A stretch of 64,000 bases of DNA from Candidatus Omnitrophota bacterium (GTDB lineage Bacteria; Omnitrophota; Gorgyraeia; Gygaellales; Profunditerraquicolaceae): the NCBI GenBank assembly GCA_023227985.1, contig JALOCB010000003.1, positions 5,260 to 69,259 on the forward strand, read 5' to 3'. Position numbers and translations under genes: made by a program. Positions 1 to 31,688 of the stretch are shown here, in pieces; positions within the stretch are counted from its first letter, which is position 1, and every line of letters begins with the position of its first letter. The notes under the pieces are model-generated. The model was not told the origin of the DNA and searched no databases. It saw nothing but the letters and a program-made list of their open reading frames with translations.

Positions 1-579
1 AGAATGATCCAGCGTCTGGCTATTAATAATGGTACTGCCCACGGCAATAACTATGACGCTGACGGTAAACTTATTGAAACACAGATGAATTTGAAGATGA
101 CCGCGGCGATCGCCGAAGTTATTAAGGCGTATGGTATACAGATAGTCCAGCACGGCGTGACCGGAACGCCTATTAAAAATCTCCAGGCATTGCGTAATGT
201 CGGGATCAGGGCCGCTCATGTCGGGACCAATTGGCAGAATATTATTTGGGAAACTTTAGTTGCCCAGGCGCAGGCGGGTAATTCGACCGCTAAGTCCATA
301 GTAAACCGGATGATCGATGCGACTATCGCTAAGACTGCGGACGTGGAGAAGAAGTATAAAGTATCCGGCCGAAGCGCAGAAGCCAAGGATAGCGTTTATG
401 TCCCGGGAAAAGACAAGAACCTGGACAAGCTGATCGGTAAAGAATTAAAGATGGTATTAGGTGTTTTCAACGACGAGTTGGTTGCTCTTCCTGATGACTT
501 GATTGCCAAGATTGATGAGGCCACCGAAAAATCCGCTACCGAGCATATGCTGGGTTTCGGTTCTGACGGAACAGCCCAG
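1..579 (+). other. Domain: class II FBA, C-terminal two-thirds (N-terminal part lies upstream of the window)
   Basis: LAINNGTAHG and IVQHGVTG match the two His-containing metal-ligand strands. GFGSDGTA matches the conserved FGSxGKA C-terminus of class II aldolases. Confidence 0.75.
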
Positions 580-3500: not shown

Positions 3501-4767
3501 CATGATTTCGGTTATTAAAGCAATGTGGGATAAGTTCGGTATCGATCATGGTACCGGCCTGACTATTCATTCCCAGACTGATTCCAATGAGACTTTCCCG
3601 ATGAAAAGCGGCAGGGCCAGGGATCCCCTGGATATCGCCCGCGGCGATTCCATCCGTGACAACATAATCCCTGCTTCAACCGGCGCAAAAAAGAACCTCT
3701 TTAAGATGATCCCGGAATTAAAAGGCAGGTTCGAGATCACCGCTGTTCGCACCGGTACTGTTTCGGCTTCGACCTGGGAGATGACCATGGACCTTAAGAC
3801 TGAAGTGACCAGGGATGATGTCCTTGCGGCTTTAAAGGATTTCGCCCTGAATAAGACCGACGGGGTGGTGAAATTTCACGAAGGAGACCCGGACAGGAAT
3901 CCCGGGCCTCTGGACGCCAACGCCGTGGTCGGCTGGAATAATGTTTCTATTATCGACAGTTTATTGATCAATGTTCTGGATAATAAGAAAACAGTGACTA
4001 TTAAAGGTTTGTATGATAACCAATCAGCGGCGCCGAATCAAATGGTTTCTAAATGGTCGCCGTGGATGGTTGACGGTTTAAGGCTGCGCCAGATAGTCGG
4101 CGAAAAGAACAGCAAAAAGCTGAACAAAGCCGAAGCTGTAGCGTATGCCAAACTCAACGCCGGTTATGCCGGCCTGCTTAAAGCCGTAAGCGCGGTAAAA
4201 ACCAGCGGAGCTCTGGTGGTCAGCGCTGACGTGGTCTTAAAGAACGCCGGGACGCTTTCATCGCTCAAAGCCTTGAAAGAATCAGGCGCTCTTATTGAGA
4301 TCATTGTCCAGGCGAACAACAAGGCTGTCGCTGATAAAATGGTATCAATGGGCGTTGAACAATTCGCGAGCATTCAGTTCAAGCAGGTTAACGCGATAGT
4401 AGAAGAGTTGAATACCAAAGGTATAACTGATGAAAGAATAGTAGTGCTTAAGACCAAAGCTGAATCGAAAGAAGAAGTCAAGAATACCGTCAAGGTGGTC
4501 AATGTCGGCGAAGCTAAAGTCGCCGAATCTTCTGTTAATGCCATGTCGATAGCAGTGGCAAAGGCAGTAACCACCGTGTTGCAGGATAATACGGAGGTTG
4601 TTGATCAATATCAGCAGATGGCGAAGAATTACGCCGAAGCTAACGACGTCGAGCTAAGCAAACTGGAAGATCTGACCAGCCAGATCTCGGATATGCCGCT
4701 GGTTAAGGTGAGCGAAGAAGTGGTCAAGGCTCAGGTTACTTACGAAGAAACTGTAAACAAGATCTAA
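1..4767 (+). CDS. Giant glycolytic fusion protein 1 (5' partial, frame open to window edge): class II fructose-bisphosphate aldolase + truncated aldolase-like copy + PPi-type 6-phosphofructokinase + GAPDH-like + shared C-terminal module
   Basis: Uninterrupted frame from nt 1 to TAA at 4765-4767. Motifs: LAINNGTAHG, IVQHGVTG, GFGSDGTA (FBA II); GVLTGGGPASGHN, LGGDDTNG, PKTMDNDI (PFK-A family); SCTSNAM, IIPASTGAKK (GAPDH). Confidence 0.85.
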   Translation, partial: RMIQRLAINNGTAHGNNYDADGKLIETQMNLKMTAAIAEVIKAYGIQIVQHGVTGTPIKNLQALRNVGIRAAHVGTNWQNIIWETLVAQAQAGNSTAKSIVNRMIDATIAKTADVEKKYKVSGRSAEAKDSVYVPGKDKNLDKLIGKELKMVLGVFNDELVALPDDLIAKIDEATEKSATEHMLGFGSDGTAQMVKDDYAVQGLVYPEDFSSIKGLYAFKALEGTDKTIMCCNIRSPLSIRGIMRAAQKTGSVVIFQQAMSEFDYTWKGGYAPENAAKLARNIKEAAKKENFHDFMIKGDHLTVKVDDAFLKDKAAQDAVAVVFEKILDEQDVSKREALFNAASKDEVLLANAGVAKAMKAVNKAMTLIKEEVASDFTVFALDASFMPTRLNVLVSAYLAGFIPQDAGLEAEVGEIGGKENSTVADALEFITGIRFKEEVVVSQGVKYSQLVGPRRIGVLTGGGPASGHNAVIAAMVREAEQRGIEIVAIPEGWAGLTKDEVAAQAKVITIKDVEKWGKKGGTMLGTSRTNPYKKEGDAQKVWDNIQKLKLDGLVTLGGDDTNGVTSKLQKEHPDYLFIGLPKTMDNDIALPESDAQTYGFDSFTVKASESFEAGKIDAQSTHRILIAEVFGRAAGFVSARIGANIGATRTLIPEELVDLSKLVEDLRSYYKNNKYGVVVVAEGASVNVDGFKLDENGELTVVKPEDPDVKLLLAAFKSDPMAKAAFIKSMKAEMDDFGHKKLENVGLIVAAVVKTALKADKIDISFAGKADYLFRSADVSKLDAEMTTMLGKAAVEKIADIQNDQLLYAYKGQIKSIPFARELGGRVLDYKGAHKDEYMLANLALIDEKTEITLSDASVNEDLFQAAVRNLKGLNPGELMTLSFSEMKVLLWKLNSLDQETGDNQEVVQSVRRILHRIDDRQIEQVKKFANIGVFARENTAYNLESVLKDDNILVIAANALIFRAGAFAEFYHNWEPGVNLAAIKSMKGGKEATAEEFVRQNSRYNGPFSPYQLKGLRVLKDERRVIDGVAVNFIFVPADKNIGRPDIKIPYFGPETTNQQVLDTMKALGLELDVMAYYGPTSETVQPRIFKEFIEAGLPVVAASPVNTDAVKNMLKAKFQQEGVADDMLDEAVSKAFKEGLYSATRKEIGADVKIVDTLSCTSNAMISVIKAMWDKFGIDHGTGLTIHSQTDSNETFPMKSGRARDPLDIARGDSIRDNIIPASTGAKKNLFKMIPELKGRFEITAVRTGTVSASTWEMTMDLKTEVTRDDVLAALKDFALNKTDGVVKFHEGDPDRNPGPLDANAVVGWNNVSIIDSLLINVLDNKKTVTIKGLYDNQSAAPNQMVSKWSPWMVDGLRLRQIVGEKNSKKLNKAEAVAYAKLNAGYAGLLKAVSAVKTSGALVVSADVVLKNAGTLSSLKALKESGALIEIIVQANNKAVADKMVSMGVEQFASIQFKQVNAIVEELNTKGITDERIVVLKTKAESKEEVKNTVKVVNVGEAKVAESSVNAMSIAVAKAVTTVLQDNTEVVDQYQQMAKNYAEANDVELSKLEDLTSQISDMPLVKVSEEVVKAQVTYEETVNKI
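586..1308 (+). other. Domain: second class II aldolase-like segment, truncated after the EAEVGEIGG strand
   Basis: IMCCNIRSPLSIRGIMRAAQKTGSVVIFQQ, IKGDHL, FALDASFMP and LEAEVGEIGGKE follow the order of FBA II strands 1-6. The GTxHG and HGxSG strands are absent before the PFK domain starts. Confidence 0.55.
1357..2493 (+). other. Domain: 6-phosphofructokinase, PPi-dependent type
   Basis: RIGVLTGGGPASGHN, GGDDT (nt 1672-1686; Asp where ATP-PFKs have Gly), PKTMDNDI, VVVAEGA, DDFGHKKL. Confidence 0.8.
2851..4083 (+). other. Domain: glyceraldehyde-3-phosphate dehydrogenase-like
   Basis: Catalytic-Cys motif SCTSNAM (Cys codon 3487-3489), LTIHSQTD, NIIPASTGAKK, PELKGRFEITAVRTGTVSAS. The N-terminal dinucleotide loop is degenerate (ILVIAANALIFRAG instead of INGFGRIGR). 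Confidence 0.7.
4156..4764 (+). other. Shared C-terminal module, copy 1 (alpha/beta-looking part plus conserved helical tail)
   Basis: Aligns over about 200 aa with the C-terminus of ORF 4926..12698. 25 of the last 34 residues are identical, and a 20-nt stretch ctgaccagccagatctcgga is identical at 4672-4691 and 12603-12622. Confidence 0.8.
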
Positions 4768-4925: not shown

Positions 4926-5156
4926 ATGTTCGTAAGGTTATCCCAAAACAACCTGTTCAGGAAGATCGTCGGCATTCTTATTCTTTTACAATTTTCAGCC
5001 GGTTTTGCCGTGATTAGGGGTTATGCTGCTCCCGGAAATTTGCGGCCTGCCGCCGTCAAACAGGATGGTTCCCGGTCCGGGACTATCCAGAATTCGCTTG
5101 ACGCGGCCAGCCTGGATAAGGTTATAAAAACCCCGGTCATTCATAAGGACGGCGGT
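4926..5156 (+). other. Shared N-terminal leader, copy 1 (basic N-terminus, hydrophobic stretch, RGYAAPGNLRPAAVK, then KDGG)
   Basis: Position-by-position alignment with the N-terminus of ORF 12779..17302. Confidence 0.75.
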
Positions 5157-8100
5157 ATAACCGGCCAGGATGTTTTTAAGAATATCCTTGGCGAATACCG
5201 TGTTTCCTCCACGATAAACAATCTCGCTTTCGGGACGTTCGTCCAGGGGCAGATCGACCTTAGTTCGGTTCAGAACCGGGAAGCGCTGGTCAATAATTTC
5301 GGGGAGATTAAGAGCAAAGATCGTTTTTTTACCCTTGAATACGCGGGAATTCCGCTTGCCCTGGTCAAGAAGGCCGAAACCGGAGAAATTACCGTCAAGA
5401 AAGTAGTCGAAGACATTGCTTCGATCCCGCTCAACATCCTTTCCGACAATGCCGAAAAGCTCAAAACCGAAGGTGTTACTTCCTCGGATATCCTGGTCCG
5501 CGATTTTCTTATCCTTGAAAAAAGGTCGCGTATCGACATCACTCAGTGCATGACCGTAGAGTTTGGCGAGCTGCGCGACTACGTATACAATCTGGCTAAA
5601 AATGTCGGCCAGGAAAAGGCACTGGAGATGGCATCGGCGTTTGCGGGTAAGGCTACCGTTGACGAGGCTATGGCGGAAGTCGGCGAGAAAGCTAAGCAGT
5701 TAGGCCGCGACCAAGCGAAGGACACAGGTCTGGCGCTGGCCGGCGGTAAGGGTTTGAGCCTTTCGGTCATGAGCCGCGTGGTTGACGTGCCGCCTGGTTT
5801 GAACGTTACTACTACCGCGTATTTTAAGTTCGTCAAAGATAATAAACAGGTCTGGGAGAAGATCTTTAATGAGCTGCAGACCTTGGATACTATGGATGAC
5901 CAGAAGCGCGACGTTGTCACTTCGGAGATCCGCGATGTCATTAAAAGCGCGCCGATACCCGAAGACATCAAGGCTGAGGTAACAGCAATGTACCACCAGC
6001 TAAGCGTTATCCGTTTTCTTGCCGGTAAACCTTCGCCCGCTCCGGTGGCTGTCCGCTCTTCCGGCACCAAAGAGGATATTCACGTTAAAACCTGGCTGCC
6101 GGTTTCCACCGGTTCCCAGGCCGGCCAGTCGGATACATTCCTTAATGTTAAGGGCGAACGGGATGTCCTGGATAAATTACGCGCCGATTGGGCGTCTTTA
6201 TTTACCGATCGCGCGGTCAGCTACCGTGATGACGCCACCTTCTTGCAGTTCTCTGGAGCCATCGATTTTAACGGTAAGACTTCTCAGGATGTCTATTGGG
6301 GGATCGTGGCGAAGCTTCGGGAATACTCCAAGAAACTGGATAAGCCTGAATATAACGTGTACGCTGACTTAATGAGTAAAGTCACCAGCCCTAACCCTGG
6401 GTCGGTGAGCCTGATGAACGCCATGGAGGAGATCCTGAGACAGGAATCGAATCCGGAGATGTCCAATGCCCTTGCCGTTCTGAAGAAGAAAGCAGAGGAG
6501 GTTGTGCATCCCGAACAGATCGGTATCGACGTTGTGATCATGCAGATGGCTAAGAGTTATCTTGCCGGCGTGCTTTTTACCGTCAATCCGGCGACCAAGA
6601 TGGCCGGTGTGGCCCAGTCGTTATACAAGTCATGGTATATGGGTGATGATTCGCTCGTGTACCGCGACGCGAAGACCGATATTATCCAGGGAACCAGGCC
6701 CATAGTGGTGAGCTTTGATGTGGCCTTCGGCTACGGCGAGAACGTAGTCGGCGGCAAGGTAAACCCGGACAAGTTCATTATGGGCACCTACGACGGCGAG
6801 AGCTGGTTTGTTATCGAGAAAAGCAAAGGCAATAAACTTATTCAGATGAAGGACGTGGAAGAAGTCATCGATCTCCTCAAAGACAAGATATCGGAAAAGG
6901 GCCAGCGGCAGCTCGCTATGACCGTGAAAGACGCGATCGCGTATGATGAGGTCGGCAAGCGGATCAACGGCATTATGGCGACCAAACTCTACGGTATCAA
7001 GTATCTTAAGGCGCTTGAGGGTAAAGAGGAAAGCGATAAAGACAAGAAGGCCCGCGTACAGGCTATCGCCAATGAGATTGCCGACATGGTCAAGAATAAG
7101 GTTTCCGAGGATGAAGTTGTCGCGTTCATCAAGGGTAACTTTGAGGTCGTTAACCGGAAGGGCTATAAAGGCATTCAGGAAATGGCGCTTTCGGGAGTGG
7201 TCAGGGAAGTGTTTGAGAAAGTCCAACAGGCCCAGGCTGAGACCGACCGGGGTATGTTTAAACTCTCAAAGCAGCTCGGCGATATGGGAAAGGCCGATAC
7301 GCTTATCCATATGATCAAGGAGGTTTGGGAGAATAAGGAATTTACTCTTTCCGACCGCCAGGCGATTCTTGACAAACTGAACCTTACCAACCAGGAATTG
7401 CGTAATATGAGTTACCTTATCCGCGCGCTGGTGGATAATAGCTTTACTTCAAATTATGAGACTACTTTAACCCACCAGGATACCTTTACTATGACCGATG
7501 ATCAGGCCCAGTATGTGGCGCGTATGGGTTGGGCGATCACCGAATATTATAAGGATGCCCGAGATATAGAGTATGCCATCGAGATAGATAAAACCGCTTC
7601 TTCCGACAAAGCGGTGAGGCTTTACGTTGTGGACGACCTGGGCAATGTCCAGGGAATGGACAATAATGGCAACCTGGTAACGGTGAAGTCCGAAAAGGAT
7701 AAAGCGCGTATAAAAGAAGCGAAGCTGCGCCTGTATAACGTGCAGGCCCGTCCGTATACCGCGGAATACTTGAAGGTGGATGTAATGCGCGCCCGGACCG
7801 AAGCGGATGAAAAGTGGCTTGAGGAGAATTCTCCTAAAGCGATTGCCAGCGGGACTAAGGGAGAGAACGCGACGCAGGGTTATGTGCTGGTGTTCGATCC
7901 TAACAAAGACGTTGCCTGGCACGCGGACCAGATCCGTCGTTTGAAAGCCGGAGATTTTACTGCGGAGGAAAAAGCCCAGATCATGGCTATGGGGTTTAAT
8001 CCCGAAGAGTATGGTTCAGGCAAAGAAAAGCAATTGTCGGTTATTCTTTATCTGCTTGAAGCTGACCCGAATCATGATCCGATCATGCGCCTGGTTGATT

Positions 8101-11100
8101 CGGTTGTTACTATCCGCGGCGGCGATACCTGCCACGCGGCTATCTTTTGCCGTGAACAAGGGATCCCTGCGGTCACCGGCGCGGGCAAGGTTATACTCAA
8201 CGGCCAATTGCTTAAGACCGGTGACGCGGTTACCGTTGATGCTAATAACGGGAATATTTACGAAATGCCCGCTGATGCCGGAGCGCGCATTCCGATCAAC
8301 TACGTGAAATTCAAGATTAAACCGTATGGCATCCCCGGCGACGACGACAATATGCCGTATCCGGGCATCGGCCAGATCATCGCCGCGGCAAGTGCCGCTC
8401 AGCAGAACTCGCCTATTATGCTTGCGGTTGACGCGGTCGGTAACTCGCTGACCCGCGCCGAGTTCAAAGGCGAAGAGATCGGTATCAACGTTTACGCCGG
8501 CTATGGCCATTATCTTTTACAGCAGATCAAGGCCGGAAAAATAAAGGAGCCAGTGAGGGTGCGTGTCCAGGAATTGATCCAGGGCAAGGTTCCCGGCGCA
8601 AAGAGGTTCGTGGACAATATTGAAAATGTTATGGCAGGCGCTTTTGCCAAGGATCCCGCCGCGCGTTCGGCATATCGCGACATTATGGGTAAGGATTTCA
8701 ATAAGGCGGATAGCCTGCAATTGCTGGAGTTTTTCGATTTGAAGAGCGACATTGAGCTGTATGGATTGGATGCGCTTAAACTGGTAAAACAGCAGGTTGA
8801 TATTCTTGATCTCGTTCCCCGGCTTCCGGAGAATATGTATCAGACGCTTGAATATCTTTATGGCGCCACTCAGCGCAGGCTCAACTATGATTATAATATT
8901 ATCGCCGATCTTCAGAACCATCCGTGGATACTGAAAGAAGTCGATTCTAAACTCGCGGAAAAGGGTTACGCGACGTTCAAGGAATACATCACTAACGAAT
9001 TCCTGTATTTTTACAATTTGATGGGTTTTACCATTGCGCCCGATCAGACCGCCAAGAACAGGGCTTACGATTTCGCCCAGGATAAGATCCGCGGCATGCC
9101 CGGTTCCGAGGTTTTTTCCTGGCCCGGAGTCAATCCGTTGGTCGGTTTGCGCGGTACGTCGTTGGAGATCGAGGCCTTTGACGAAGATTTCGGCGGCAAT
9201 CAGCTGGTATTGGATTTTCTTTTTGATTCCGTGATCCAGGCGCACCAGAATACCGGTAACCAAGCCTGGTTTTATGTGTTTGTCCGTTCTTCCCGGGAGT
9301 TAGAGACCCTGGATAAGATCATTGAGCACAAGGCTAAGCAGACCGGGAAGCTTCCGAAAGAGATCGGGATCATGATCGAAGTTCCCAGTGCCGCTTTGGT
9401 GGCTGATGAGCTTGCTGTTAAGATGTCCGAGATGGAGAAAAAATATAAGAAGTATGGCGTTGAGCATACTTTCTTTTCCTTCGGCACTAACGACTATTCG
9501 CATCTTGCTGGTATGGGTGACCGTGAAGACCCGCGAATGAAACTCAAGATTATGGATCCCGCAGCGATCGAAGCGATCGGCGAGATGAAAGCAGCGGGGT
9601 ATTATTATGATGATGCTGCTAAAGTGCTTCCGTTGATTGATGAAGGCGCTGATGTTATGCAGCAGCTTATGGAAACAGTGGTTGCTGCGGCTAATGGTTC
9701 AAGCGTGGCTACCTCGCTTTGCGGCGAGGCGATCACCGCCCTGGTTAACCGCGGGGATTATGAGACCGCAGGCAAGATAATGGCGCTTCTGGATTCTTTC
9801 GGCGTGAGCATGATGAAAGTCCGCCTCGCAGCTTCAATGACGCGCGTGGACACCATGGCGGCTACCAAAGGGATCACCATTCCGGAAGCCGGACGTTCGA
9901 TCCTGTTCGATTTGTCTGCCGGCGAGGTGAAACAGAAAAAGGGCGTCATCAAGGGCGAGATAATATTCGTTGATAATGCCGATGATCTCGTCCCGAACGT
10001 CCTTAAAGGCCTTCAGGGTCCGGAGCTGACGAAAAAGAAAGAGATGTTCAAGCTCCAGAGCCTGGAAAACGCCCGTTCGACTATGCGTACCTTCAATAAG
10101 ATCGTAATTATCACTAAAAACCTCGTTGCTCAGCAGGAGCCTGAGTTGGTCGCGGAGATGGGCAAAGCCGCATTCAGCAAGTTTGTCAATGACGGCCTGC
10201 TTAAAGATATCGGTAATGGGCAGTATGTCTGGACGAATCTGGGTGTAAAGACGGAGAAGTTCAACCAGGAATTGACAATTCAAGGTTTCTCTGAAAAAGA
10301 ACGTAAAGCTATTGAAGGTTTGTGGCAGAAGGCCTGGGATAACAGCATTGAAGGGCTTGAGCGCCGCGGAATTGATTGGGATGATCTACAATATGCCAAG
10401 GCTATAATCGTTGATGCGGACGTTAACCTTGATGGCTGGGATGTGTTCCGCAAGGACAAGAGTATTATTCCGACCCGTATCAAGGCTACGGTCAAAGGTA
10501 TAAGCTCCCGCCGTGCGGAGTTAGAAGGGCAATTGGCAACTATAGATTACGCCGCTAAGAAGGTCTACAAGGATTTTCTCAGCGTGGAAAAGATCGCTGC
10601 CGTCCTGCGCAGTCTTCCTATCCCAGCGGAAAAGCCTATGATAACTACGCAATCGGCTGTCGCGGAGAACGCCAACAGTGTATACCAGAAGATCGGGTAT
10701 CATCCTAAGCTCCTTCTTGCCTATGAGCGGAATGCTGTGAATGAACTTGGAAAGATATTCGAGGAATATGTAGGCAAGCTGGTTGAAGAAGTTGAAAAAG
10801 TTACTCAGGAGACCGACGTTCAGAAACGCGTATGGCTTTTACAGAAACTGCAGAATAAAGTTGGCGGGCTTGCGGAACCGATGATCAAATCGTTTATGAG
10901 CGATGTGCTTTCCGAGGCCATGCGCACAGGTGCGGTAACGCTGCCGGATAACTGGAACAAGAAGCTTTGGGAGGCCTATCGCAGCGACCTGGAAAGCGAG
11001 ATCAGTAAGATCCTTAACGGAAAGACGGTTGAGCAGTATTTTATCGCGCAGTTCAGCGAACAGATGAAGGAAGTGCTCTCCGCCAACAAAGGGGCATTGG

Positions 11101-12698
11101 TTGTCCATCTTTTGGGAAGCCTCAACTGTGTTGATTTCTTTAATATGAAAGGCGGTTTCCTGGTTGAACAGGTCAATCCCAACCCTGATTACGGCATTCT
11201 TGGAGCGGCGCGCGCAATAGGGGATATGTGGGAGATAAACCGCATGGAATTGTCCGCTTTTAAGGCGGTATGGGATAATCTGCCGGTTGACCAGCGCGGT
11301 AATTTTGGCCTGCAGATCACCAATCTCAAAGGCACCCAGTCCGGCGCGGTGGTGATCGGCTGGCGTAATATTCTGAAACAAACCGGTATTATCCCGGGGC
11401 AAGACGGTTTGCAGGTTGGCGTCAATATCGTCACTCCGGCGGATAGCATCGCTGCGGATAAGTATTTTGAGTACTTTAATACGCTCGGAAGCGGGTTAAG
11501 TTTTATCTCATATGATGCGTTGAAGCTTGGCGCTGCCTGGGCCGGCGTGGATATTTTTTGGAAGGAATGGAGGAGGCTGGCTAAGGAAGATGAGTTGTTG
11601 AGGTTCGGCGTCATGACCGGCTGGATGGCGGAAGCCAAGGCTCTGAGGTTCGGCGGCAAAGTCCTTTCCTTTGATATTTCTGACGAAGCCAAACAGACTG
11701 ACGGCGGCGCTGAGGTTGTGCCTTACCGGGTAGTGGTGGAGAATCTCTTCCGGGGGATCATTAAGAAATATGATGCTTTGGATAACGGCCAAGCTCTTTC
11801 TCTCGAAAAAGAAGAGTTGGAGGCAATACTCTGGATCTTGAATTCTTCTCCTTTTGAGAATATGTCAAGCCCGTTTGCCGCGATCAAGAGTATGAAGAAT
11901 ATCAGGAATGTGATCGAAAGGCTCAGCGATGACCAAAAGAAGGCCCTAAGTGTACTTTCACAGGGCTTGGTTTTTGTCAATCACGGGCTGGATAAAAAGG
12001 TGGCGGCATTGCTCGTAGACAAGAAGTTGCTCGACACCGCATATGAATCCGACACGGCGGTATATAAAGGGTTGAACAGCGGTTTTGACAGCTTCGCCAA
12101 TGCCTTGAAAGAGGTTAAGAATGCCGAGGGCGCTTTAGTGGTTAGCGCAAATGCTGTGTTGAATAACGCCGGAACGCTGAGAGTCCTGAGAGAAATAAAA
12201 GAAACCGGGCTGACCTTGGAAATAATCGTCCGGGCTGATACGGAAGATCAGGTGAATAAGCTGATTGCCCTTCGGGCAGACGAAGTCGCGACTATCCAGG
12301 CCAAGCGGCTGTCAGTTGTGCTCAGCGGCTTGAAGAACGCGGGTATAACCGATGGCAAGATAGTGGTGATTAAAGGCAAAGAAGAAGTAAAAGACGCGGT
12401 AGAAGCCGGCGTAAAGGTCGTAGAGATCTCCATGCCTAAAACAGAGGAGTCCAGTATCAACTCCATGGCCTTAGTTGCGGCAAAAGCGGTAATCATAGTG
12501 TTAAATGGTGAAGAAACGGTTGCCGCGCAATACCGGGAAATGGCGGTAAAATACGCCGCAGATAACAGCGTAACCTCTGAAGAATTGGATGATCTGCAGG
12601 ACCTGACCAGCCAGATCTCGGAGATACCCATGGCCAAGGTCAGCGAAGAAGTCGCTAAGGCGCAGGCCACTTATGAGGAGACTATAAGCAAGATATAA
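4926..12698 (+). CDS. Giant fusion protein 2: leader + PEP-utilising dikinase (PPDK/PpsA family) with large insertions + degenerate duplicate of its His and TIM-barrel domains + shared C-terminal module
   Basis: 2590-codon ORF with GGAGGG 4 nt upstream of the ATG. Motifs: LAGGKGLSLSVM, VAVRSSGTKEDI, GSQAGQSDTFLNV, IRGGDTCHAAIFCREQGIPAVTG (His codon 8133-8135), FFSFGTNDYSHL, SLCGEA. Confidence 0.85.
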   Translation: MFVRLSQNNLFRKIVGILILLQFSAGFAVIRGYAAPGNLRPAAVKQDGSRSGTIQNSLDAASLDKVIKTPVIHKDGGITGQDVFKNILGEYRVSSTINNLAFGTFVQGQIDLSSVQNREALVNNFGEIKSKDRFFTLEYAGIPLALVKKAETGEITVKKVVEDIASIPLNILSDNAEKLKTEGVTSSDILVRDFLILEKRSRIDITQCMTVEFGELRDYVYNLAKNVGQEKALEMASAFAGKATVDEAMAEVGEKAKQLGRDQAKDTGLALAGGKGLSLSVMSRVVDVPPGLNVTTTAYFKFVKDNKQVWEKIFNELQTLDTMDDQKRDVVTSEIRDVIKSAPIPEDIKAEVTAMYHQLSVIRFLAGKPSPAPVAVRSSGTKEDIHVKTWLPVSTGSQAGQSDTFLNVKGERDVLDKLRADWASLFTDRAVSYRDDATFLQFSGAIDFNGKTSQDVYWGIVAKLREYSKKLDKPEYNVYADLMSKVTSPNPGSVSLMNAMEEILRQESNPEMSNALAVLKKKAEEVVHPEQIGIDVVIMQMAKSYLAGVLFTVNPATKMAGVAQSLYKSWYMGDDSLVYRDAKTDIIQGTRPIVVSFDVAFGYGENVVGGKVNPDKFIMGTYDGESWFVIEKSKGNKLIQMKDVEEVIDLLKDKISEKGQRQLAMTVKDAIAYDEVGKRINGIMATKLYGIKYLKALEGKEESDKDKKARVQAIANEIADMVKNKVSEDEVVAFIKGNFEVVNRKGYKGIQEMALSGVVREVFEKVQQAQAETDRGMFKLSKQLGDMGKADTLIHMIKEVWENKEFTLSDRQAILDKLNLTNQELRNMSYLIRALVDNSFTSNYETTLTHQDTFTMTDDQAQYVARMGWAITEYYKDARDIEYAIEIDKTASSDKAVRLYVVDDLGNVQGMDNNGNLVTVKSEKDKARIKEAKLRLYNVQARPYTAEYLKVDVMRARTEADEKWLEENSPKAIASGTKGENATQGYVLVFDPNKDVAWHADQIRRLKAGDFTAEEKAQIMAMGFNPEEYGSGKEKQLSVILYLLEADPNHDPIMRLVDSVVTIRGGDTCHAAIFCREQGIPAVTGAGKVILNGQLLKTGDAVTVDANNGNIYEMPADAGARIPINYVKFKIKPYGIPGDDDNMPYPGIGQIIAAASAAQQNSPIMLAVDAVGNSLTRAEFKGEEIGINVYAGYGHYLLQQIKAGKIKEPVRVRVQELIQGKVPGAKRFVDNIENVMAGAFAKDPAARSAYRDIMGKDFNKADSLQLLEFFDLKSDIELYGLDALKLVKQQVDILDLVPRLPENMYQTLEYLYGATQRRLNYDYNIIADLQNHPWILKEVDSKLAEKGYATFKEYITNEFLYFYNLMGFTIAPDQTAKNRAYDFAQDKIRGMPGSEVFSWPGVNPLVGLRGTSLEIEAFDEDFGGNQLVLDFLFDSVIQAHQNTGNQAWFYVFVRSSRELETLDKIIEHKAKQTGKLPKEIGIMIEVPSAALVADELAVKMSEMEKKYKKYGVEHTFFSFGTNDYSHLAGMGDREDPRMKLKIMDPAAIEAIGEMKAAGYYYDDAAKVLPLIDEGADVMQQLMETVVAAANGSSVATSLCGEAITALVNRGDYETAGKIMALLDSFGVSMMKVRLAASMTRVDTMAATKGITIPEAGRSILFDLSAGEVKQKKGVIKGEIIFVDNADDLVPNVLKGLQGPELTKKKEMFKLQSLENARSTMRTFNKIVIITKNLVAQQEPELVAEMGKAAFSKFVNDGLLKDIGNGQYVWTNLGVKTEKFNQELTIQGFSEKERKAIEGLWQKAWDNSIEGLERRGIDWDDLQYAKAIIVDADVNLDGWDVFRKDKSIIPTRIKATVKGISSRRAELEGQLATIDYAAKKVYKDFLSVEKIAAVLRSLPIPAEKPMITTQSAVAENANSVYQKIGYHPKLLLAYERNAVNELGKIFEEYVGKLVEEVEKVTQETDVQKRVWLLQKLQNKVGGLAEPMIKSFMSDVLSEAMRTGAVTLPDNWNKKLWEAYRSDLESEISKILNGKTVEQYFIAQFSEQMKEVLSANKGALVVHLLGSLNCVDFFNMKGGFLVEQVNPNPDYGILGAARAIGDMWEINRMELSAFKAVWDNLPVDQRGNFGLQITNLKGTQSGAVVIGWRNILKQTGIIPGQDGLQVGVNIVTPADSIAADKYFEYFNTLGSGLSFISYDALKLGAAWAGVDIFWKEWRRLAKEDELLRFGVMTGWMAEAKALRFGGKVLSFDISDEAKQTDGGAEVVPYRVVVENLFRGIIKKYDALDNGQALSLEKEELEAILWILNSSPFENMSSPFAAIKSMKNIRNVIERLSDDQKKALSVLSQGLVFVNHGLDKKVAALLVDKKLLDTAYESDTAVYKGLNSGFDSFANALKEVKNAEGALVVSANAVLNNAGTLRVLREIKETGLTLEIIVRADTEDQVNKLIALRADEVATIQAKRLSVVLSGLKNAGITDGKIVVIKGKEEVKDAVEAGVKVVEISMPKTEESSINSMALVAAKAVIIVLNGEETVAAQYREMAVKYAADNSVTSEELDDLQDLTSQISEIPMAKVSEEVAKAQATYEETISKI
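5688..6845 (+). other. Domain: dikinase N-terminal ATP-grasp (nucleotide-binding) region
   Basis: GGKGLSLS..VPPGLNVTT, VRSSGTKED, QAGQSDTFLNVKG, DRAVSYR, IDVVIMQM..AGVLFTVNP. Confidence 0.75.
7833..8270 (+). other. Domain: phosphohistidine swivel domain
   Basis: GTKGENATQGYVLVF ... ILYLLEADPNHDPIM ... TIRGGDTCHAAIFCREQGIPAVTGAG ... GDAVTVDANNGNIY. Confidence 0.8.
8343..9845 (+). other. Domain: PEP/pyruvate-binding TIM barrel
   Basis: NPLVGLRGTS, GIMIEVPSAAL, FFSFGTNDYSHL, SLCGEA. Confidence 0.75.
9918..11675 (+). other. Degenerate duplicate of the swivel and TIM-barrel domains; catalytic His and GTND motif lost
   Basis: GVIKGEIIFVDNADDL ... AKAIIVDADVNLDGWDVF ... GQLATIDYAAKKVY mirrors the swivel-domain layout without the His. 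EQVNPNPDYGILGAARAI, LQVGVNIVTPADSIAAD and LSFISYDALKLG mirror NPxLGxRG, MIEVPSAAL and FSxGTNDL. Confidence 0.5.
12078..12695 (+). other. Shared C-terminal module, copy 2
   Basis: EGALVVSANAVLNNAGTL..LEIIVRAD..ATIQ..GITDGKIVVIKGK...DLTSQISEIPMAKVSEEVAKAQATYEETISKI aligns with copy 1. Confidence 0.8.
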
Positions 12699-12778: not shown

Positions 12779-12961
12779 ATGTCCAGGCCGTCTAAAAACA
12801 ATAGTATCTCTAAAATAATTTCCGGCGTTGTGATCGCGCAATTTATCATGAGCAGTATAGCCCTGCGCGGTTATGCCGGCACAGACAATTTAAGGCCGGC
12901 TCCGGTCAAAGATTCCGACCGGATAAGCGTTCTGGCCGATGAATTGCAGAAAGACGGCGGC
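12779..12961 (+). other. Shared N-terminal leader, copy 2 (RGYAGTDNLRPAPVK ... KDGG)
   Basis: Aligns with 4926..5156. Confidence 0.75.
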
Positions 12962-15900
12962 AAACTGGCTGAATGGATCCATATCTTAGCGGAAAATACA
13001 ATTGTGGGCGATGCCGCTAAAGGTTCGAACGTCGGCATGGTCATACGGCTGGGAAAGCTTGTTGAAGAGAATATATCCGGGTCCATATTAGGGCATTCGG
13101 CAAACCGGAAGGCGTATATAAAGGAAGTGGGCGCTCAAATCGCTGAAGGGCTGCGTTTGACCGGAATGGAAGAAAAGGCGATCGCGGCTGCCAGCCGCAA
13201 GATAGCTTTTTCCAGATACGATAACATCATGAATCACCGGATCCAGGCGATGTTTCAAGCAGGGATCAGGGAGATCTGCCTTTGCGTAGGCAGTGATAAG
13301 GATAAGCTCACCGTTGAGGAAGAGATATCGGATGTGCTTGCGCAGTTGCAGGTGTCTTTTGCCGATGTCTCTTTGGAACAAATAAAAAAGATAATTTTCC
13401 ACGTGGCTTGGGAGCCTGCGGCGAATATCGGCACCGGTACTGCTGTCGGTCCGGAAAAGATCAAGCTGGTCCATCAGGCTATCTATGAATTCTTTGCCGA
13501 GAAGTATAATACACCCTCCGGGTATATCGGCGATGTTTGGGGGAAGTCATTGAAAATACTTTACGGCGCAAGCGTTGACGGAAAGAACGTCGACGGCATA
13601 ATGGCGGTGAAAGAGGATAAAGGCATGGCTTTGGTGCACGGCGTGTTATTCGCTTCTTCGGGTAAAAAGGCCGATGGCTTCCTGGCTGTGGCCGAGGGGG
13701 TTAGCCGCGCCGCGGAAAGGGATAACGCCCAGTATGTCTGTTTTGTCAACCTTAAGGAATTCGCCAGGGCTGAGAAAGATGAGGCTTTGACTTTTGTCGT
13801 CGAGATCGTCCGGGCCATTGCTTTAGGACGGATCGATCCCCGGCATACCATTCTGGCGATCGCTGACCAGGATGTACATCTAAAGGAGTGGCAGGACGCG
13901 ATCGTCGGCAGAAGCGTTTCGATGTCGGACGGCGGATACGCGTATGTTGAAGGAACGAACTTTAAGGACAAGAATGTGCTTTTTCGCCCGGATTATAACA
14001 CTCCGGCTTCGGTAAAGACCGATGATCAGGGTAATGTTTTGTCGATCAAAATATCCGACGCAAGCAGGATCGTTGATTCCTTCCCGGCTTTGACCAAGAT
14101 CCTGAAAGATAAGCCAAAACATGTGGTTGTCGTTGTCCATTTCGAACCTAAGGTGTTGAATCCCGCGACCGGTAAGAAAGACAAGAAAAATCTGTCTACT
14201 AAAGTCACAGCGGACAAACTTAAAGAATTGCTGCCGGCGGAATATAAAGATAAGGTAATATTCCTGGCTGATTCAGTCAATGACAATGGGATTGCCGCCG
14301 AAGCAATGCGGGCTATAGAAAGTTATACTGATTCCGAGATCATCGTATTGGAAAATATCCGTTTTGCCAAAGGCGAAAAGAAAGGTGCCCCCGAGCTTAA
14401 TGATCCTAAAGGTGTAGCTTTACGCAAACAGCTTTCAGGATTAGCGGACGAATATGTGGTGGATGCCTTGGGTAATATTCATCGCGCCCACGCATCAATG
14501 CTGCCTTTGCCCGGGGTGCATAAAGTCATGGGCAGTCTTGTGGAAAAAGAGATTAAAGTGTTCAACCGGATACTTAACCCGGCGCATCCTTATGCCGGGG
14601 TTAACGGCGGTAATAAGGTTGAAGATAAAGTGGATACCATGGATGTGTCTTTGTCGACGATGCAGGAAGGCGACGCGATCATCATCGGCGGGGCTATGGC
14701 CTACACTTTTTTAAAGGCGCAGGATCCAACATTGAAATTGGGCAAATCACTTGTTCAGGCGGATAAAGTTGATCTGGCTAAGACTATACTTGAGAAGGCC
14801 GCCCGGAAGAAGGTGCGGATAATCCTTCCAGTGGACCATCGCATCTCGGATAAACTCGCTCCCGGAGCAGCAGAATTGGTTACTGAGGGGCTGGAAGTGC
14901 CGGATGGGTACATGGCGGTAGATATCGGACCCAAGACTGAAAAAATAGTCGCCGAGGTCTTAAGTAATGCCCAGACCGCTTTTTGGAACGGCCCAATGGG
15001 CGCGTTCGAGGATGAGGCTGGTGGTTTTAATAAGGGGACTTATACGGTTGCCAGGGAACTGCAGAAAATGGGCAGGTCCGGACGCCTGGCCGGTATCGGC
15101 GGCGGGGAGACACGTATGGCAGCAATTAAGGCCGGGGTTACCGATGCTGACGGCGTGTTCATGTCCAGCGGCGGCGGTTCCACGCAGGAATATTTCGCCA
15201 AGAAAGGCAATCTCCCGGTGATCAAGAATCTGGAGAATGACGAAACCGCCCAGAAAAATCTCGTCCTCGCGGGGAAATTGGGGGTAGAACCCGCGGATCT
15301 GGCGCGTTTTGAAGCGGCAGACAGCAGTATTTATAATGCCTTGGGAGATAAACTTTTCAACGGCTATATATCTCAGGTCAGAAGGTTGCTTCCCAGGTTT
15401 TCGACAGGCCAGAAATTAAACGGCGCTCTGTCCAAAGCAGAGGTCTCTGCGGAGGTGATTAAAGATTCGCGCGGAAACAATACTGTCCGGGCAACTTTAA
15501 AGATCGGGGATATTGTTACTGTCGGCGAAGTCCCTGCAGGCGCTTCCAAAGGGGCAGCTGAGGCTTTTGCTTTTCCGCCGAAGGAAATAGATAGGGCGAT
15601 CGCCAACGTGGCGAAGATCCAGGAGATACTTAAGAACAGCGGCCTGGATATAAGCAAACACAGCGATCTGCGCAAGACGGAACAATTGATCATTGCCGCG
15701 GCCGGTGAAAACTTCGCGACACTGGGCGCGAACGCCACAGTCCCTATTTCCTGGGCCTTGTGGAGGATGGCGGCAGCGTTGAATAATATGGAACTCTGGG
15801 AATACATCCGGATCAATGAGCCGGGAGTTGTCGGTAATGATCCGGTTTATTTCTATATGAACATATATAACGGCGGGCTGCACGCTTCCGGAGGCGACGC

Positions 15901-17302
15901 TTCGGTATTGGGTACAGTTTGGACCGAATTCCAGGAGATGCTGATCGTGCCCGTGGGCGCTAAAACTCACGCCGAAGGCGTGGCTATGGGAGATAAGATC
16001 GACCAGGAATTGAAGAAAATACTGAAAGGTAAATTCGCGGAAGCGGATATAATGCGTAAAGATGAAGCTGGTTTCGCGGTCAAAGGCCTGGGAAAAAGCG
16101 AAGACGCGATCGCTTATGTGGTACAGGCGATCAGGAACGCCGGCTATGAGCCCGGTAAAGACGTAAAGCTGGCTTTGGATGTCGCCGCGACCTCTTTCTA
16201 CGACGAGAAAGAGAATATATACAAGTTCCAGGGCCAGAAATTGACCTCAGCCGAGATGGTCGATTTTTACGTCAAACTGGTAAAGCAATATGACGGCCTG
16301 TTCCTTTCTATAGAAGACGGCCTGGCTGAAGAAGATTGGCAGGGATGGGTAGAGCTAACCGCGGCTATGAAAGAAAAAGGCGTCCTGACTATAGGCGATG
16401 ATCTGTACGTTACCCAGCACGGCCGGTTGAACAAAGGGCTGGCGATGAACGCGGCTACAGCGATCCTGATCAAGGTTAATCAAAATGGGACCCTGGGCGG
16501 AACTATCGATGTTATGAAGACCGCCAAGGCCAATGGCATTAAAGCTGTGGTATCGCACCGTTCCGGAGAAACTCTGGATGCCGGGATCGCGGATCTGGCT
16601 TACGCAACCCGGGCGTTCGGGCTTAAAACCGGGGATCCTCAACCTTTGGTTGATTTCCAGAATCCGAACGAACTGGTGCGCCGGGCTAAGTATGACAGGA
16701 TGATCGAGATCCAGAAACAAGAAAACATCCAAAATGACCCGGCATTATCCAGGCCTAAAGCGCTGTTGATCAATGCGGATTTTTTCAAATCCGGCGCGGT
16801 TAAGAACGCTGTGGCGGAAATAGCGAGATTAAACGGGAATATCAATGTGGTGATCTACGGAGATAATGCCGAAAAGCTAAAGACGCTGGTAGGAAATCCC
16901 GATATTATCGCGGTGCGGAGTTTGACTGCAGCTGTCTCTGAAATAGCTAACCGCGGGGTAAAATCTTCTCAGGATGCCGTTATTTTGACGCCTATGCCGT
17001 ATAGCTCGGAAACGTTTATTGTTCAAATCCGCAGCGGAGAAATAAGCACGCTGGCTTTGGCCAAGGCGGTAAAGCAGTTATTCAAGAACGACCGGATCAC
17101 CGCGGCTATGGATGAATTCTATAAATCGCTGGTTGATAACAAAGTGGTTTCCGAGCAGGACTACATAAATACAAGGGAAAAAATCCTAACGGATCTGATC
17201 GACGGTGTTTACAACCTGGGTGAGATTAAGTTGACAAAACAGGTATCTGATGTTATAGAAAAGGAGCGGCTGGTAACCGAAGAGTTCGTGGGTAAAGTGT
17301 AA
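12779..17302 (+). CDS. Giant glycolytic fusion protein 3: leader + triosephosphate isomerase + phosphoglycerate kinase + enolase + divergent C-terminal module
   Basis: 1507-codon ORF with GGAGGG 5 nt upstream of the ATG. TPI: SILGHSANR, AWEPAANIGTG, ILYGASV. PGK: LFRPDYNTP, NIHRAHASM, IIGGAMAYTFLKAQ, FWNGPMGAFE. Enolase: IKDSRGNNTV, VPAGASKGAAEA, KDEAGFA, IEDGLAEEDW, IGDDLYVT, LIKVNQNG, SHRSGET. Confidence 0.88.
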   Translation: MSRPSKNNSISKIISGVVIAQFIMSSIALRGYAGTDNLRPAPVKDSDRISVLADELQKDGGKLAEWIHILAENTIVGDAAKGSNVGMVIRLGKLVEENISGSILGHSANRKAYIKEVGAQIAEGLRLTGMEEKAIAAASRKIAFSRYDNIMNHRIQAMFQAGIREICLCVGSDKDKLTVEEEISDVLAQLQVSFADVSLEQIKKIIFHVAWEPAANIGTGTAVGPEKIKLVHQAIYEFFAEKYNTPSGYIGDVWGKSLKILYGASVDGKNVDGIMAVKEDKGMALVHGVLFASSGKKADGFLAVAEGVSRAAERDNAQYVCFVNLKEFARAEKDEALTFVVEIVRAIALGRIDPRHTILAIADQDVHLKEWQDAIVGRSVSMSDGGYAYVEGTNFKDKNVLFRPDYNTPASVKTDDQGNVLSIKISDASRIVDSFPALTKILKDKPKHVVVVVHFEPKVLNPATGKKDKKNLSTKVTADKLKELLPAEYKDKVIFLADSVNDNGIAAEAMRAIESYTDSEIIVLENIRFAKGEKKGAPELNDPKGVALRKQLSGLADEYVVDALGNIHRAHASMLPLPGVHKVMGSLVEKEIKVFNRILNPAHPYAGVNGGNKVEDKVDTMDVSLSTMQEGDAIIIGGAMAYTFLKAQDPTLKLGKSLVQADKVDLAKTILEKAARKKVRIILPVDHRISDKLAPGAAELVTEGLEVPDGYMAVDIGPKTEKIVAEVLSNAQTAFWNGPMGAFEDEAGGFNKGTYTVARELQKMGRSGRLAGIGGGETRMAAIKAGVTDADGVFMSSGGGSTQEYFAKKGNLPVIKNLENDETAQKNLVLAGKLGVEPADLARFEAADSSIYNALGDKLFNGYISQVRRLLPRFSTGQKLNGALSKAEVSAEVIKDSRGNNTVRATLKIGDIVTVGEVPAGASKGAAEAFAFPPKEIDRAIANVAKIQEILKNSGLDISKHSDLRKTEQLIIAAAGENFATLGANATVPISWALWRMAAALNNMELWEYIRINEPGVVGNDPVYFYMNIYNGGLHASGGDASVLGTVWTEFQEMLIVPVGAKTHAEGVAMGDKIDQELKKILKGKFAEADIMRKDEAGFAVKGLGKSEDAIAYVVQAIRNAGYEPGKDVKLALDVAATSFYDEKENIYKFQGQKLTSAEMVDFYVKLVKQYDGLFLSIEDGLAEEDWQGWVELTAAMKEKGVLTIGDDLYVTQHGRLNKGLAMNAATAILIKVNQNGTLGGTIDVMKTAKANGIKAVVSHRSGETLDAGIADLAYATRAFGLKTGDPQPLVDFQNPNELVRRAKYDRMIEIQKQENIQNDPALSRPKALLINADFFKSGAVKNAVAEIARLNGNINVVIYGDNAEKLKTLVGNPDIIAVRSLTAAVSEIANRGVKSSQDAVILTPMPYSSETFIVQIRSGEISTLALAKAVKQLFKNDRITAAMDEFYKSLVDNKVVSEQDYINTREKILTDLIDGVYNLGEIKLTKQVSDVIEKERLVTEEFVGKV
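12962..13648 (+). other. Domain: triosephosphate isomerase
   Basis: Candidates for all three catalytic residues are present: Lys in VGDAAKGSN, His in GHSANR, Glu in WEPAANIGTG (Glu codon 13412-13414). The C-terminal FASSGKKADGF resembles GGASLKxxxF. Confidence 0.7.
13931..15223 (+). other. Domain: phosphoglycerate kinase
   Basis: KNVLFRPDYNTP, LENIRF, GNIHRAHASM, GGNKVEDK, IIGGAMAYTF, VDIGPKT, FWNGPMGAFE, SSGGGST. Confidence 0.8.
15431..16708 (+). other. Domain: enolase (paralog of the stand-alone eno at 30393..31658)
   Basis: Motifs as listed for the CDS. Ser of SHRSGET is at 16553-16555. Confidence 0.85.
16751..17299 (+). other. C-terminal module, divergent third copy
   Basis: ALLINADFFKSGAV..INVVIYGDN..IIAVRS..AVILTP followed by a helical tail. 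Same strand/helix rhythm as copies 1 and 2 but low identity. Confidence 0.4.
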
Positions 17303-29303: not shown

Positions 29304-29330
29304 CCGCCTGCCACGGTAGGTAAAACAAAA

Positions 29331-29362
29331 AACCCGCTCAAAATTCCGAGCGGGTTTTTTGT
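29331..29362. terminator. Rho-independent terminator, probably bidirectional
   Basis: AACCCGCTC (29331-29339) / GAGCGGGTT (29349-29357), with an A-run upstream and TTTTTTG downstream. It sits between convergent plus-strand and minus-strand units. Confidence 0.8.
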
Positions 29363-29408
29363 TGGAAATTGCGGGGGCCAGATTTGAACTGACGGCCTTC
29401 AGGTTATG

Positions 29409-30033
29409 CTTGCTACTACAGCTTTAGCTGCTCCGCTATCAAGCGGATTCGTAGTCTGGACTATATCTTGACCAACTATCGTTGGCCCCTGCCGTTTAGT
29501 CTCTACACTTTTCTCCGTTGCCGGAGACTTAGCTCGGTATTACCTTGACTTGCGTCGAGGGTTTCACCGAATTTGACAGGATATCCTTCAACCGTTACCG
29601 GTTGAGGAGCCCTTCGGACAATAAACTCCATCGTTGCCTGTACAGTGCGGACATCGGTTTGCGCTGTCGTTTGCCGCTTTCGACTAAACTGATGGTGCTG
29701 CCGAATTTGGTAAAGACAGAGCAGGGGACGATGTAGAACACATTCAGGGGTTCGATTACAGCACCGCAAAATCGAAATCATCCGCGTCATATCTCGCCCG
29801 CAACATCCTTCGTCTGTTCGTCTTGGTCCGTCTGACATCGACACAATACATGTCGTTTTTCTGGTCGAACCAAGCGCTTTTGACTTGAATGCGCAGAAGT
29901 TTACCATCCAGGTCGATCGCCAGATCATAAGGGAGGCGATCCCCGAACGGTTTGAGCACCCTGAACCCTTGTTTCAGGAGTTCAGTGATGACGGCAGATT
30001 CTGCGATGTCAGATTTGAGTTTTTTATCCATTG
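29409..30033 (-). mobile_element. Group I intron (625 nt) in the anticodon loop, carrying a homing-endonuclease ORF
   Basis: The 5' exon ends in U and the intron ends in G. The 3' 190 nt contain GGUGAAACCC...CAAGGUAAUACCGAGCUAAGUC and GUAGAGACUAAACGGCAGGGGCCAACGAUAGUUGGUCAAGAUAUAGUCCAGAC. These closely resemble the P4-P6 and P7/P3'/P8/J8-7 core strings of the Anabaena tRNA-Leu and Tetrahymena introns, as recalled from memory. Confidence 0.8.
29595..30031 (-). pseudogene. Intron-encoded PD-(D/E)XK-type homing endonuclease (I-Ssp6803I-like), split by a frameshift
   Basis: The ATG at 30031 opens 91 codons (MDKKLKSDIAESAVITELLKQGFRVLKPFGDRLPYDLAIDLDGKLLRIQVK...DFDFAVL) ending at TAA 29756-29758. 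A plausible continuation VIEPLNVFYIVP..ISLVESGKRQRKP..YRQRWSLL runs in the -1 frame to TAA 29595-29597. Confidence 0.6.
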
Positions 30034-30126
30034 AGCCTGACGAGCTACCGGACTGCTCCACCCCGCGAATCTATTATGAAAGAACAGGTATATTTTACTC
30101 TTATTTTAAAGAGTTCAAAGCCTTAT

Positions 30127-31688
<1,562 letters not shown>

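Follow-up and report, generated by a model that had tools for sequence, protein, structure and literature searches.

The founding case of a group I intron in a bacterial initiator tRNA gene is the tRNA-fMet intron of Synechocystis, which is 655 nt long and encodes the 150-residue homing endonuclease I-Ssp6803I (GenBank U10482). Such introns, designated fMet.2Ug or fMet 33/34, are one of the four classical types of bacterial tRNA introns, all of subgroup IC3. In a survey of 4,934 complete genomes, tRNA-fMet 33/34 is called a well-characterised insertion site (Nakagawa et al. 2026, PMC13011429), and IC3 introns at this site are listed for Desulfobacterota, Nitrospirota, Bacteroidota, and one genome of Omnitrophota (Table S5 of PMC13011429). 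Endonuclease genes were recorded in only 12 of 333 tRNA introns, and the PF11645 domain in tRNA-fMet only in two cyanobacteria (PMC13011429). An older review describes homologues of I-Ssp6803I as generally cyanobacterial. The enzyme acts as a tetramer of full-length subunits. In phage systems, a free-standing endonuclease and an intron without an open reading frame (ORF) can be aimed at the same site, an arrangement called collaborative homing (PMC3984707). Here we describe a tRNA-fMet gene of a Candidatus Omnitrophota bacterium (assembly GCA_023227985.1, contig JALOCB010000003.1), which is split between U33 and C34, the insertion point of the fMet 33/34 class, by a group I intron carrying a frameshifted endonuclease gene. 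The whole 64-kb stretch of this contig that was analysed is referred to as the window. The element belongs to an already known kind of intron, which is common in Omnitrophota. An earlier note, made from the letters of the window, had proposed the interrupted initiator tRNA gene and likened it to that of Synechocystis; the likeness holds and extends to an I-Ssp6803I homologue inside the intron, a gene that the note overlooked together with its frameshift.

For comparison, genomes were scanned, one per species, for relatives of the endonuclease. In total, 423 genomes encode a relative, and the anatomy of the locus was examined in the best 80 of them. Individual loci and contigs are cited by L numbers. 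Exons in the relatives were mapped by Hamming matching; ARAGORN in intron mode misplaces the intron and labels many of these tRNAs as Leu, Ser, Thr, or Pro. The split gene and its intron occupy the following positions in the window:

30034-30067, minus strand: exon 1 of tRNA-fMet, 34 nt, standard positions 1-33, 3' end GGCU, with U33 at 30034 (ARAGORN on the spliced form).
29409-30033, minus strand: group I intron, 625 nt, between U33 and C34, with the terminal omega-G at 29409 (ARAGORN intron mode, RF00028, conserved boundaries).
29369-29408, minus strand: exon 2 of tRNA-fMet, from the anticodon CAU to the discriminator A73; CCA is not encoded.

The exons read CGCGGGGTGGAGCAGTCCGGTAGCTCGTCAGGCT (30067 to 30034) and CATAACCTGAAGGCCGTCAGTTCAAATCTGGCCCCCGCAA (29408 to 29369), and the coordinates given for them in the earlier note were exact to the base. 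Joined in silico, they form a 74-nt tRNA which ARAGORN calls tRNA-Met(cat). Its C1xA72 mismatch, A11:U24 pair, discriminator A73, and CAU anticodon are hallmarks of an initiator, as the note had supposed, and the formylation determinant at positions 1x72 is intact. The tRNA equals E. coli tRNA-fMet, in what we take to be the sequence of the latter, at 67 of 74 positions. Exon 1 is conserved in 76 of the 80 related loci. The spliced product is expected to have the junction …GCUCGUCAGGCU/CAUAACCUGAAGG… (GGCU/CAUAACC; slashes mark splice or end points here and below). On unspliced DNA, ARAGORN in intron mode reports the 625-nt intron. The split gene was not detected in the window by ARAGORN with default settings, nor by a search with the Rfam tRNA model, which the earlier note had proposed as a check; since standard tRNA finders miss it, the genome would seem to lack an initiator tRNA. 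The 3' CCA, absent from the window gene (29365-29368; …CCCCGCAA/TTTCC), is encoded in the closest relative L083 and in the intron-less contig L179 described below (…CGCAACCA).

The intervening sequence matched the group I intron model RF00028 at 29437-29633 on the minus strand with 61.6 bits (gathering score 50; E = 3.4e-13) over the full model, positions 1-253, and 13 of 13 relatives tested also passed the threshold. The identification of a group I intron in the earlier note is upheld by this match and by the covariation of the core helices presented below. The likeness to the Anabaena tRNA-Leu and Tetrahymena introns, which the note had pointed out, reflects the shared core (J3/4, P7, J8/7). 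Of the 80 loci, 76 share the boundaries GGCT/…G/CATAACC. Counting that of the window, all 77 introns have the omega-G directly before CATAACC; the terminal G named in the note lies at 29409. The dinucleotide CA is repeated at both junctions, and the note could choose U33/C34 only by rule. The ambiguity disappears in L043 and L047, in which the introns begin with TGG instead of CA and fix the splice site between U33 and C34. The repeat itself probably arises because the intron start and the start of exon 2 complement the same guide nucleotides, in P1 and P10, respectively. The structural elements of the ribozyme are as follows:

30033-30037, minus strand: 5' strand of P1, exon GGCU plus intron C1, with a U33.G wobble at the splice site; pairs with the guide GGGCU.
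29608-29612, minus strand: internal guide sequence (IGS) GGGCU, the 3' strand of P1, conserved in relatives.
30017-30030, minus strand: 5' strand of the P1 extension, UGGAUAAAAAACUC, first ORF codons including UG of the start codon (RNAduplex).
29615-29628, minus strand: 3' strand of the P1 extension, GAGUUUAUUGUCCG, last ORF codons (RNAduplex, covariation).
29585-29607, minus strand: P2 hairpin, CCUCAACCG-GUAA-CGGUUGAAGG (compensatory changes).
29409-29580, minus strand: catalytic core with P3, P4-P5, P6/P6a, P7 (pseudoknot GACUA/UAGUC), P8, P9 base, P9, P9a, J3/4, J6/7, J8/7, and omega-G (RNAalifold, pair counting).

Covariation was evaluated on 65 cores and 57 pairs in 10 helices (P2, P3, P4-P5, P6/P6a, P7, P8, P9 base, P9, P9a). 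Paired cells made up 95.7% of these helices, and compensatory changes were present at 43 of the 57 pairs, including all 9 pairs of P2. The covariation score was 0.515 compared to 0.07-0.12 with slid partners, and none of 500 shuffles reached it. P7 is invariant except for one covarying pair (AU 52, UA 8, GC 5). Every family-invariant column is present in the window intron, and when the window sequence is folded by itself, the minimum-free-energy structure contains the P2-P9 helices (z = -5.96). We provisionally assign the intron to the IC3 type by resemblance, on the basis of 76% core identity to a published IC3 intron and of the small P2-P9 layout without a P5abc extension. Two alternative pairings were discarded. 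The Rfam alignment labels the IGS region at the 5' end of the match as P2, while the short ORF-less relatives show the true IGS and P2. RNAalifold paired GGGC of the IGS with GUCC of P7, an artefact of omitting exon 1 in which the columns are invariant; it was replaced by P1 and the P7 pseudoknot.

P1 of the short ORF-less introns is a simple hairpin formed by exon GGCU, intron CA, a small loop, and the guide UGGGCY, and P2 comes next. It is into the loop of this hairpin that the ORF of the long introns is inserted. The P1 pairing is identical in all relatives; L043 and L047 alter intron positions 1 and 2 and still pair. The GGG of the guide does not vary among 65 relatives, 57 of which have C and 7 U at the fourth position. 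For all 60 long introns examined, RNAduplex predicted an extension of P1, in which the first ORF codons AUGGAYACAAAGCUC pair with the last codons …GGGAUUUGUUGUCC. The third positions of Asp-2 (GAY) and Leu (UUR) covary synonymously in this helix (C-G 31, U-A 15, U.G 6, C/A 0). Covariation of the extension was tested on its proximal part; one consensus register for the distal part did not suit all members, the window being shifted by one relative to most.

The ORF in the P1 loop consists of two overlapping parts:

29756-30031, minus strand: 5' part of the endonuclease pseudogene, ATG at intron nt 3-5 (30031), 91 codons, TAA at 29758-29756 (ORF listing).
29595-29759, minus strand: 3' part of the pseudogene in the -1 frame, 54 codons, VIEPLNVFY...KRQRKP...LLNR (ORF listing).

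The frame-repaired protein aligned with residues 3-139 of I-Ssp6803I (PDB 2OST; E = 3e-45, 54% identity over 137 residues) and with positions 1-137 of the 138 in Pfam profile PF11645 (PDDEXK_5; E = 1e-41, 142.5 bits, cutoff 26.1). By this homology, the ORF is the gene of an I-Ssp6803I-family PD-(D/E)XK homing endonuclease, and it is now a pseudogene: the intact frame of the family is interrupted by TAA after codon 91. Alignment with the intact L083 (87% nucleotide identity over the intron) and L003 (83%) places a 1-nt deletion at CTGT-AATCGAA of the window, where these intact relatives have CTGTTTATCGAA and CTGTATGTCGAA; the deletion itself creates the TAA. The same deletion is present in L001 and L002, and thus three assemblies, including that of the window, agree. 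A 137-kb ENA contig matches the window at every base over an 899-nt region, and a JGI contig from a different sample does so over the 812 nt of this region that it spans. Since the ENA and JGI contigs each differ from the window elsewhere by 2-3 substitutions, the assemblies are independent, and the deletion is therefore real. The ancestral stop codon UAA falls in the GUAA loop of P2. In relatives with a GAAA loop in P2, the ORF reads on into P3/P4.

The endonuclease proteins in databases (P0001, P0005, P0023, P0031, P0056, P0072, P0078, and others in alignment A1) carry annotation artefacts at both ends. The N-terminal VEQSGSSSGS is exon 1 of the tRNA translated in frame. The C-terminal tails …LSNSVEP and ...RKRLKDSLSNSVEP... 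result from read-through into the P2-P4 region of the ribozyme where the P2 loop has no stop codon.

Homologues of the endonuclease formed 1,173 clusters, the closest being annotated as "group I intron-associated PD-(D/E)XK endonuclease" of Candidatus Omnitrophota metagenome-assembled genomes (MAGs). The best 80 genomes belonged mostly to Omnitrophota; Bacteroidota (including cultured Arcicella), Margulisiibacteriota, Patescibacteria, Desulfococcaceae, and two cyanobacteria were also represented. The split of tRNA-fMet was identical in 76 of the 80 loci. In 61 loci, the endonuclease gene lies within an intron of 621-695 nt, and in 15 loci the intron is ORF-less (202-325 nt) and the endonuclease gene is located downstream of the tRNA. 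The latter arrangement was observed in L039, L042, L059, L061, L062, L069, L070, L071, L072, L074, L075, L077, L079, L080, and L081, in hosts from Omnitrophota, Margulisiibacteriota, Bacteroidota (cultured Arcicella rosea, A. gelida, and A. aurantiaca), and the cyanobacterium Scytonema. The free-standing gene is intact in 14 of the 15, with a premature stop in L071. Its distance downstream of the tRNA is 58-330 nt in 13 loci and about 1.1-1.2 kb in the other two, and it mostly lies past the tRNA terminator. An endonuclease homologue without a recognisable tRNA-fMet nearby was found in L048, L055, L057, and L058. In L058 and in L077 (2412-3014), a tRNA-Ser(CGA) gene is preceded, at about 100 nt, by an endonuclease gene. 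Partial copies of tRNA-fMet were also noticed: in L059, a copy of the 3' half (ACCCTGAGGCCATAGGCTCAAATCCTCCTCCCCGCAACCA) directly follows the stop codon of the free-standing endonuclease gene (about 2530-2575), and in L018, about 370 nt separate an orphan 27-nt copy of the 5' end (2093-2119) from the real split gene downstream of it. Such duplicates may be scars of endonuclease-driven rearrangement.

The split gene is flanked in the window by host genes and a terminator:

30127-31658, minus strand: eno and divIC/ftsB, upstream host genes, context only (Pfam DivIC and enolase domains, synteny).
29322-29354, minus strand: intrinsic terminator 3' of the tRNA, CCCGCUC-GGAAUUUU-GAGCGGG-UUUUUUGUUUU, hairpin and U-run (read from the sequence).

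The terminator was missed by a pattern scan, probably since the flanking A/U runs lengthen its stem. The order eno-divIC-tRNA-fMet is kept in more than 40 of the best 80 loci, with enolases 81% to 56% identical to that of the window. This synteny, together with the 81% enolase identity to Omnitrophota MAGs, identifies the host as a Candidatus Omnitrophota bacterium; the earlier note was right that it is not cyanobacterial. Judged by gene order, the chromosomal position of the split gene is orthologous throughout a deep clade. The suggestion of the note that the intron is a lateral or independent occurrence therefore survives only in part: the host does lie outside the cyanobacteria, but a locus conserved throughout a deep clade is not a one-off. 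Several MAGs labelled as Deltaproteobacteria, Planctomycetia/Planctomycetales, or simply "bacterium" (L003, L005, L012, L013, L014, and others) share the Omnitrophota synteny, with enolase identities of 64-81% to the window, and their taxonomic labels are probably wrong or outdated. Elsewhere in the window, the first 17 kb are occupied by three successive giant ORFs on the plus strand (4-4767, 4926-12698, and 12779-17302; 1587, 2590, and 1507 amino acids).

The JGI metagenome contig L179 (3115 nt) contains eno, divIC, an intact tRNA-fMet gene (606-679, minus strand), and a terminator. Its enolase shares 78.5% identity with those of the intron-bearing L012 and L033. By synteny, L179 represents the orthologous locus without the intron; such alleles are to be expected with a homing element, and the intron is therefore not fixed in the clade. 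Pairwise divergence of the host enolase showed a weak, significant correlation with endonuclease divergence (Spearman 0.23, Mantel p = 0.019) and with divergence of the intron core (Spearman 0.31, p = 0.003), a co-divergence which is compatible both with vertical descent and with exchange within the phylum. The correlation between endonuclease and core was 0.58, stronger than that of either with the host. These data fit an element long resident throughout the clade, with some exchange, gain, and loss, i.e., the usual homing-endonuclease cycle. The window copy is probably at the stage of this cycle at which the endonuclease has just died: 3' of the lesion, its codon differences from L083 comprise 15 synonymous and 5 non-synonymous ones, a purifying pattern which indicates that inactivation was recent.

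Taken together, we assign a probability of about 0.88 to the reading that the window contains an Omnitrophota tRNA-fMet gene split at U33/C34 by an IC3-type fMet 33/34 group I intron with a broken endonuclease gene, which is immobile but probably still splices. Several observations weigh against it. The case for splicing activity comes from conservation. In the sublineage of the window, the guide region reads AGGGCU instead of UGGGCU; P1 loses one pair (with intron A2), and a potential P10 of 3 bp (exon CAU with AUG) loses its second pair, leaving a P1 proper of only 5 bp and a P10 of about 1 bp. The variant occurs in several relatives and is therefore probably tolerated. A scan for sigma-70-like promoters found none directly upstream of the tRNA on the minus strand, although this consensus may not be that of Omnitrophota. 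Finally, bacterial initiator tRNAs have three consecutive G-C pairs in the anticodon stem, 29-41, 30-40, and 31-39. The stem of the window tRNA (30040-30036/29403-29399) has two of the three, G30-C40 and G31-C39, and A29-U41 in place of the third. A29-U41 is also present in most Omnitrophota relatives and, among metagenome contigs with an uninterrupted tRNA-fMet, in at least 120 (L084-L203) found by a scan for the intact A29-U41 anticodon arm, the orthologue L179 being one of these; its frequency marks it as a lineage-typical variant, not damage.

The alternative that survives best, though we consider it unlikely, is that the locus is a decaying relic whose intron no longer splices efficiently, the initiator being supplied by an uninterrupted tRNA-fMet gene elsewhere in the genome. 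A broken endonuclease gene and P1 and P10 helices each weakened by one pair are what such decay would look like. The ribozyme, however, retains all family-invariant core nucleotides and helices, the exons are perfect, and the terminator is clean. Moreover, this conserved eno-divIC-tRNA-fMet site is where the initiator gene of the relatives resides, be it split or uninterrupted. No second tRNA-fMet gene was found in the 64-kb window or, in the relatives, adjoining the split one; L031 and L044 do have further tRNA-Met genes, but these are elongators.

It is still less probable that the endonuclease continues to be made, by programmed frameshifting or as two interacting fragments, and that the intron remains mobile. 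The downstream frame is open to the ancestral stop codon and conserved, as the 15:5 ratio shows, and the lesion is fixed in three assemblies. At the lesion site (GUG CUG UAA UCG), however, there is neither a slippery heptamer nor a homopolymer, and all close relatives have a single continuous ORF across this position; programmed frameshifting was rejected on these grounds. As noted above, the subunits of tetrameric I-Ssp6803I are full-length. A simpler explanation for the open frame is that the mutation is recent and that the RNA is constrained, since the P1 extension, IGS, and P2 overlap the 3' end of the ORF. That the interruption or the frameshift is an artefact of assembly or binning, for instance through contig chimerism or an error in sequencing, has next to no probability, for although the source is a metagenome assembly, independent ENA and JGI contigs are identical to it over 899 and 812 nt, three assemblies are concordant, and the same architecture recurs in 76 other genomes.

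For the reading of an immobile but splicing intron, the following mechanism can be proposed. The precursor tRNA would be transcribed alone or together with eno-divIC and would end at the terminator (29354-29322). Exon GGCU and intron C1 would pair with the guide GGGCU to form P1 with the U33.G wobble at the splice site, and a P1 extension of about 13 bp, built from the first and last ORF codons, would loop the ORF out. P2-P9, together with the P7 pseudoknot, would form the guanosine-binding core. An exogenous G would then attack after U33, followed by exchange for the omega-G (29409) and ligation of the exons, and the ligated 74-nt tRNA would receive its CCA post-transcriptionally. The endonuclease gene in the P1 loop would formerly have mobilised the intron into intron-less tRNA-fMet alleles. 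With the single-base deletion and the resulting premature TAA, the element would have become an immobile passenger that probably still splices.

If so, an essential component of translation would be placed behind an RNA-catalysed step in a phylum of small-celled and largely uncultured bacteria, and initiation would depend on splicing, as the note suggested, provided that the genome has no other initiator tRNA gene. The locus captures a homing endonuclease just after its probable inactivation. For annotation, the family matters because gene callers output spurious endonuclease proteins with translated tRNA exon or ribozyme core at their ends. A classical "cyanobacterial" element is most diverse outside the cyanobacteria, relatives being present in 423 species-level genomes, of which the best 80 are mostly from Omnitrophota. 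Members with cultured hosts, e.g., Arcicella, offer tractable material for studying the association of endonuclease genes with introns. More tentatively, and with somewhat less than even odds, we suggest that endonuclease-bearing tRNA-fMet introns centred on Omnitrophota form a large population, essentially undescribed so far, to which the intron of the window belongs. In this population, the ORF would be nested in the P1 loop with its start codon at intron nt 3-5, the first and last codons would form a covarying closing helix, and the stop codon would lie in the P2 tetraloop. The free-standing-endonuclease, intron-less, and broken states at one orthologous locus would form a natural series of endonucleases joining, leaving, and decaying, and such introns would be much commoner than the 12 of 333 from complete genomes implies. 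Neither the many endonuclease-bearing copies in Omnitrophota, nor the P1-nested ORF with its covarying closing helix, nor the free-standing arrangement seems to have been described in the literature consulted.

Among known systems, the cyanobacterial tRNA-Leu(UAA) and Azoarcus tRNA-Ile introns resemble that of the window by description: they are small IC3-type introns and, like it, lie in the anticodon loop and have U-1, omega-G, and P1-P9. They differ in their host tRNA and insertion position (34/35 for Leu) and have no ORF. Collaborative homing (PMC3984707) offers an analogy for the 15 relatives that combine an ORF-less tRNA-fMet intron with a downstream gene of the I-Ssp6803I family, although the phage systems involve protein genes, whereas the relatives have a tRNA gene on bacterial chromosomes. 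Unlike both, the window itself has the nested (composite) arrangement. The intron of Synechocystis sp. PCC 6803 (U10482; PDB 2OST) occupies the same gene and, by its class description, the same 33/34 site; both introns probably fall in the IC3-type class, their size is similar, 655 nt with a 150-residue ORF in Synechocystis compared to 625 nt with about 145 codons in the window, and the endonucleases belong to one family, with the 54% identity over 137 residues given above. The host there is a cyanobacterium, not a member of Omnitrophota; the window endonuclease gene is frameshifted, and its host tRNA has A29-U41 in place of an uninterrupted run of three G-C pairs. The ORFs are also placed differently: that of the window opens at intron nt 3, with both its ends contributing to the P1 extension, but that of L064, the only long cyanobacterial intron seen, begins 18 nt into the intron. 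The published intron of the Omnitrophota genome GCF_004102945.1 (PMC13011429) shares with that of the window the phylum, gene, site, and layout of guide and P2, with cores 76% identical over 202 aligned nt. It is 252 nt long and ORF-less, and the window intron differs from it by a 417-nt insertion in the P1 loop that holds the broken endonuclease gene.

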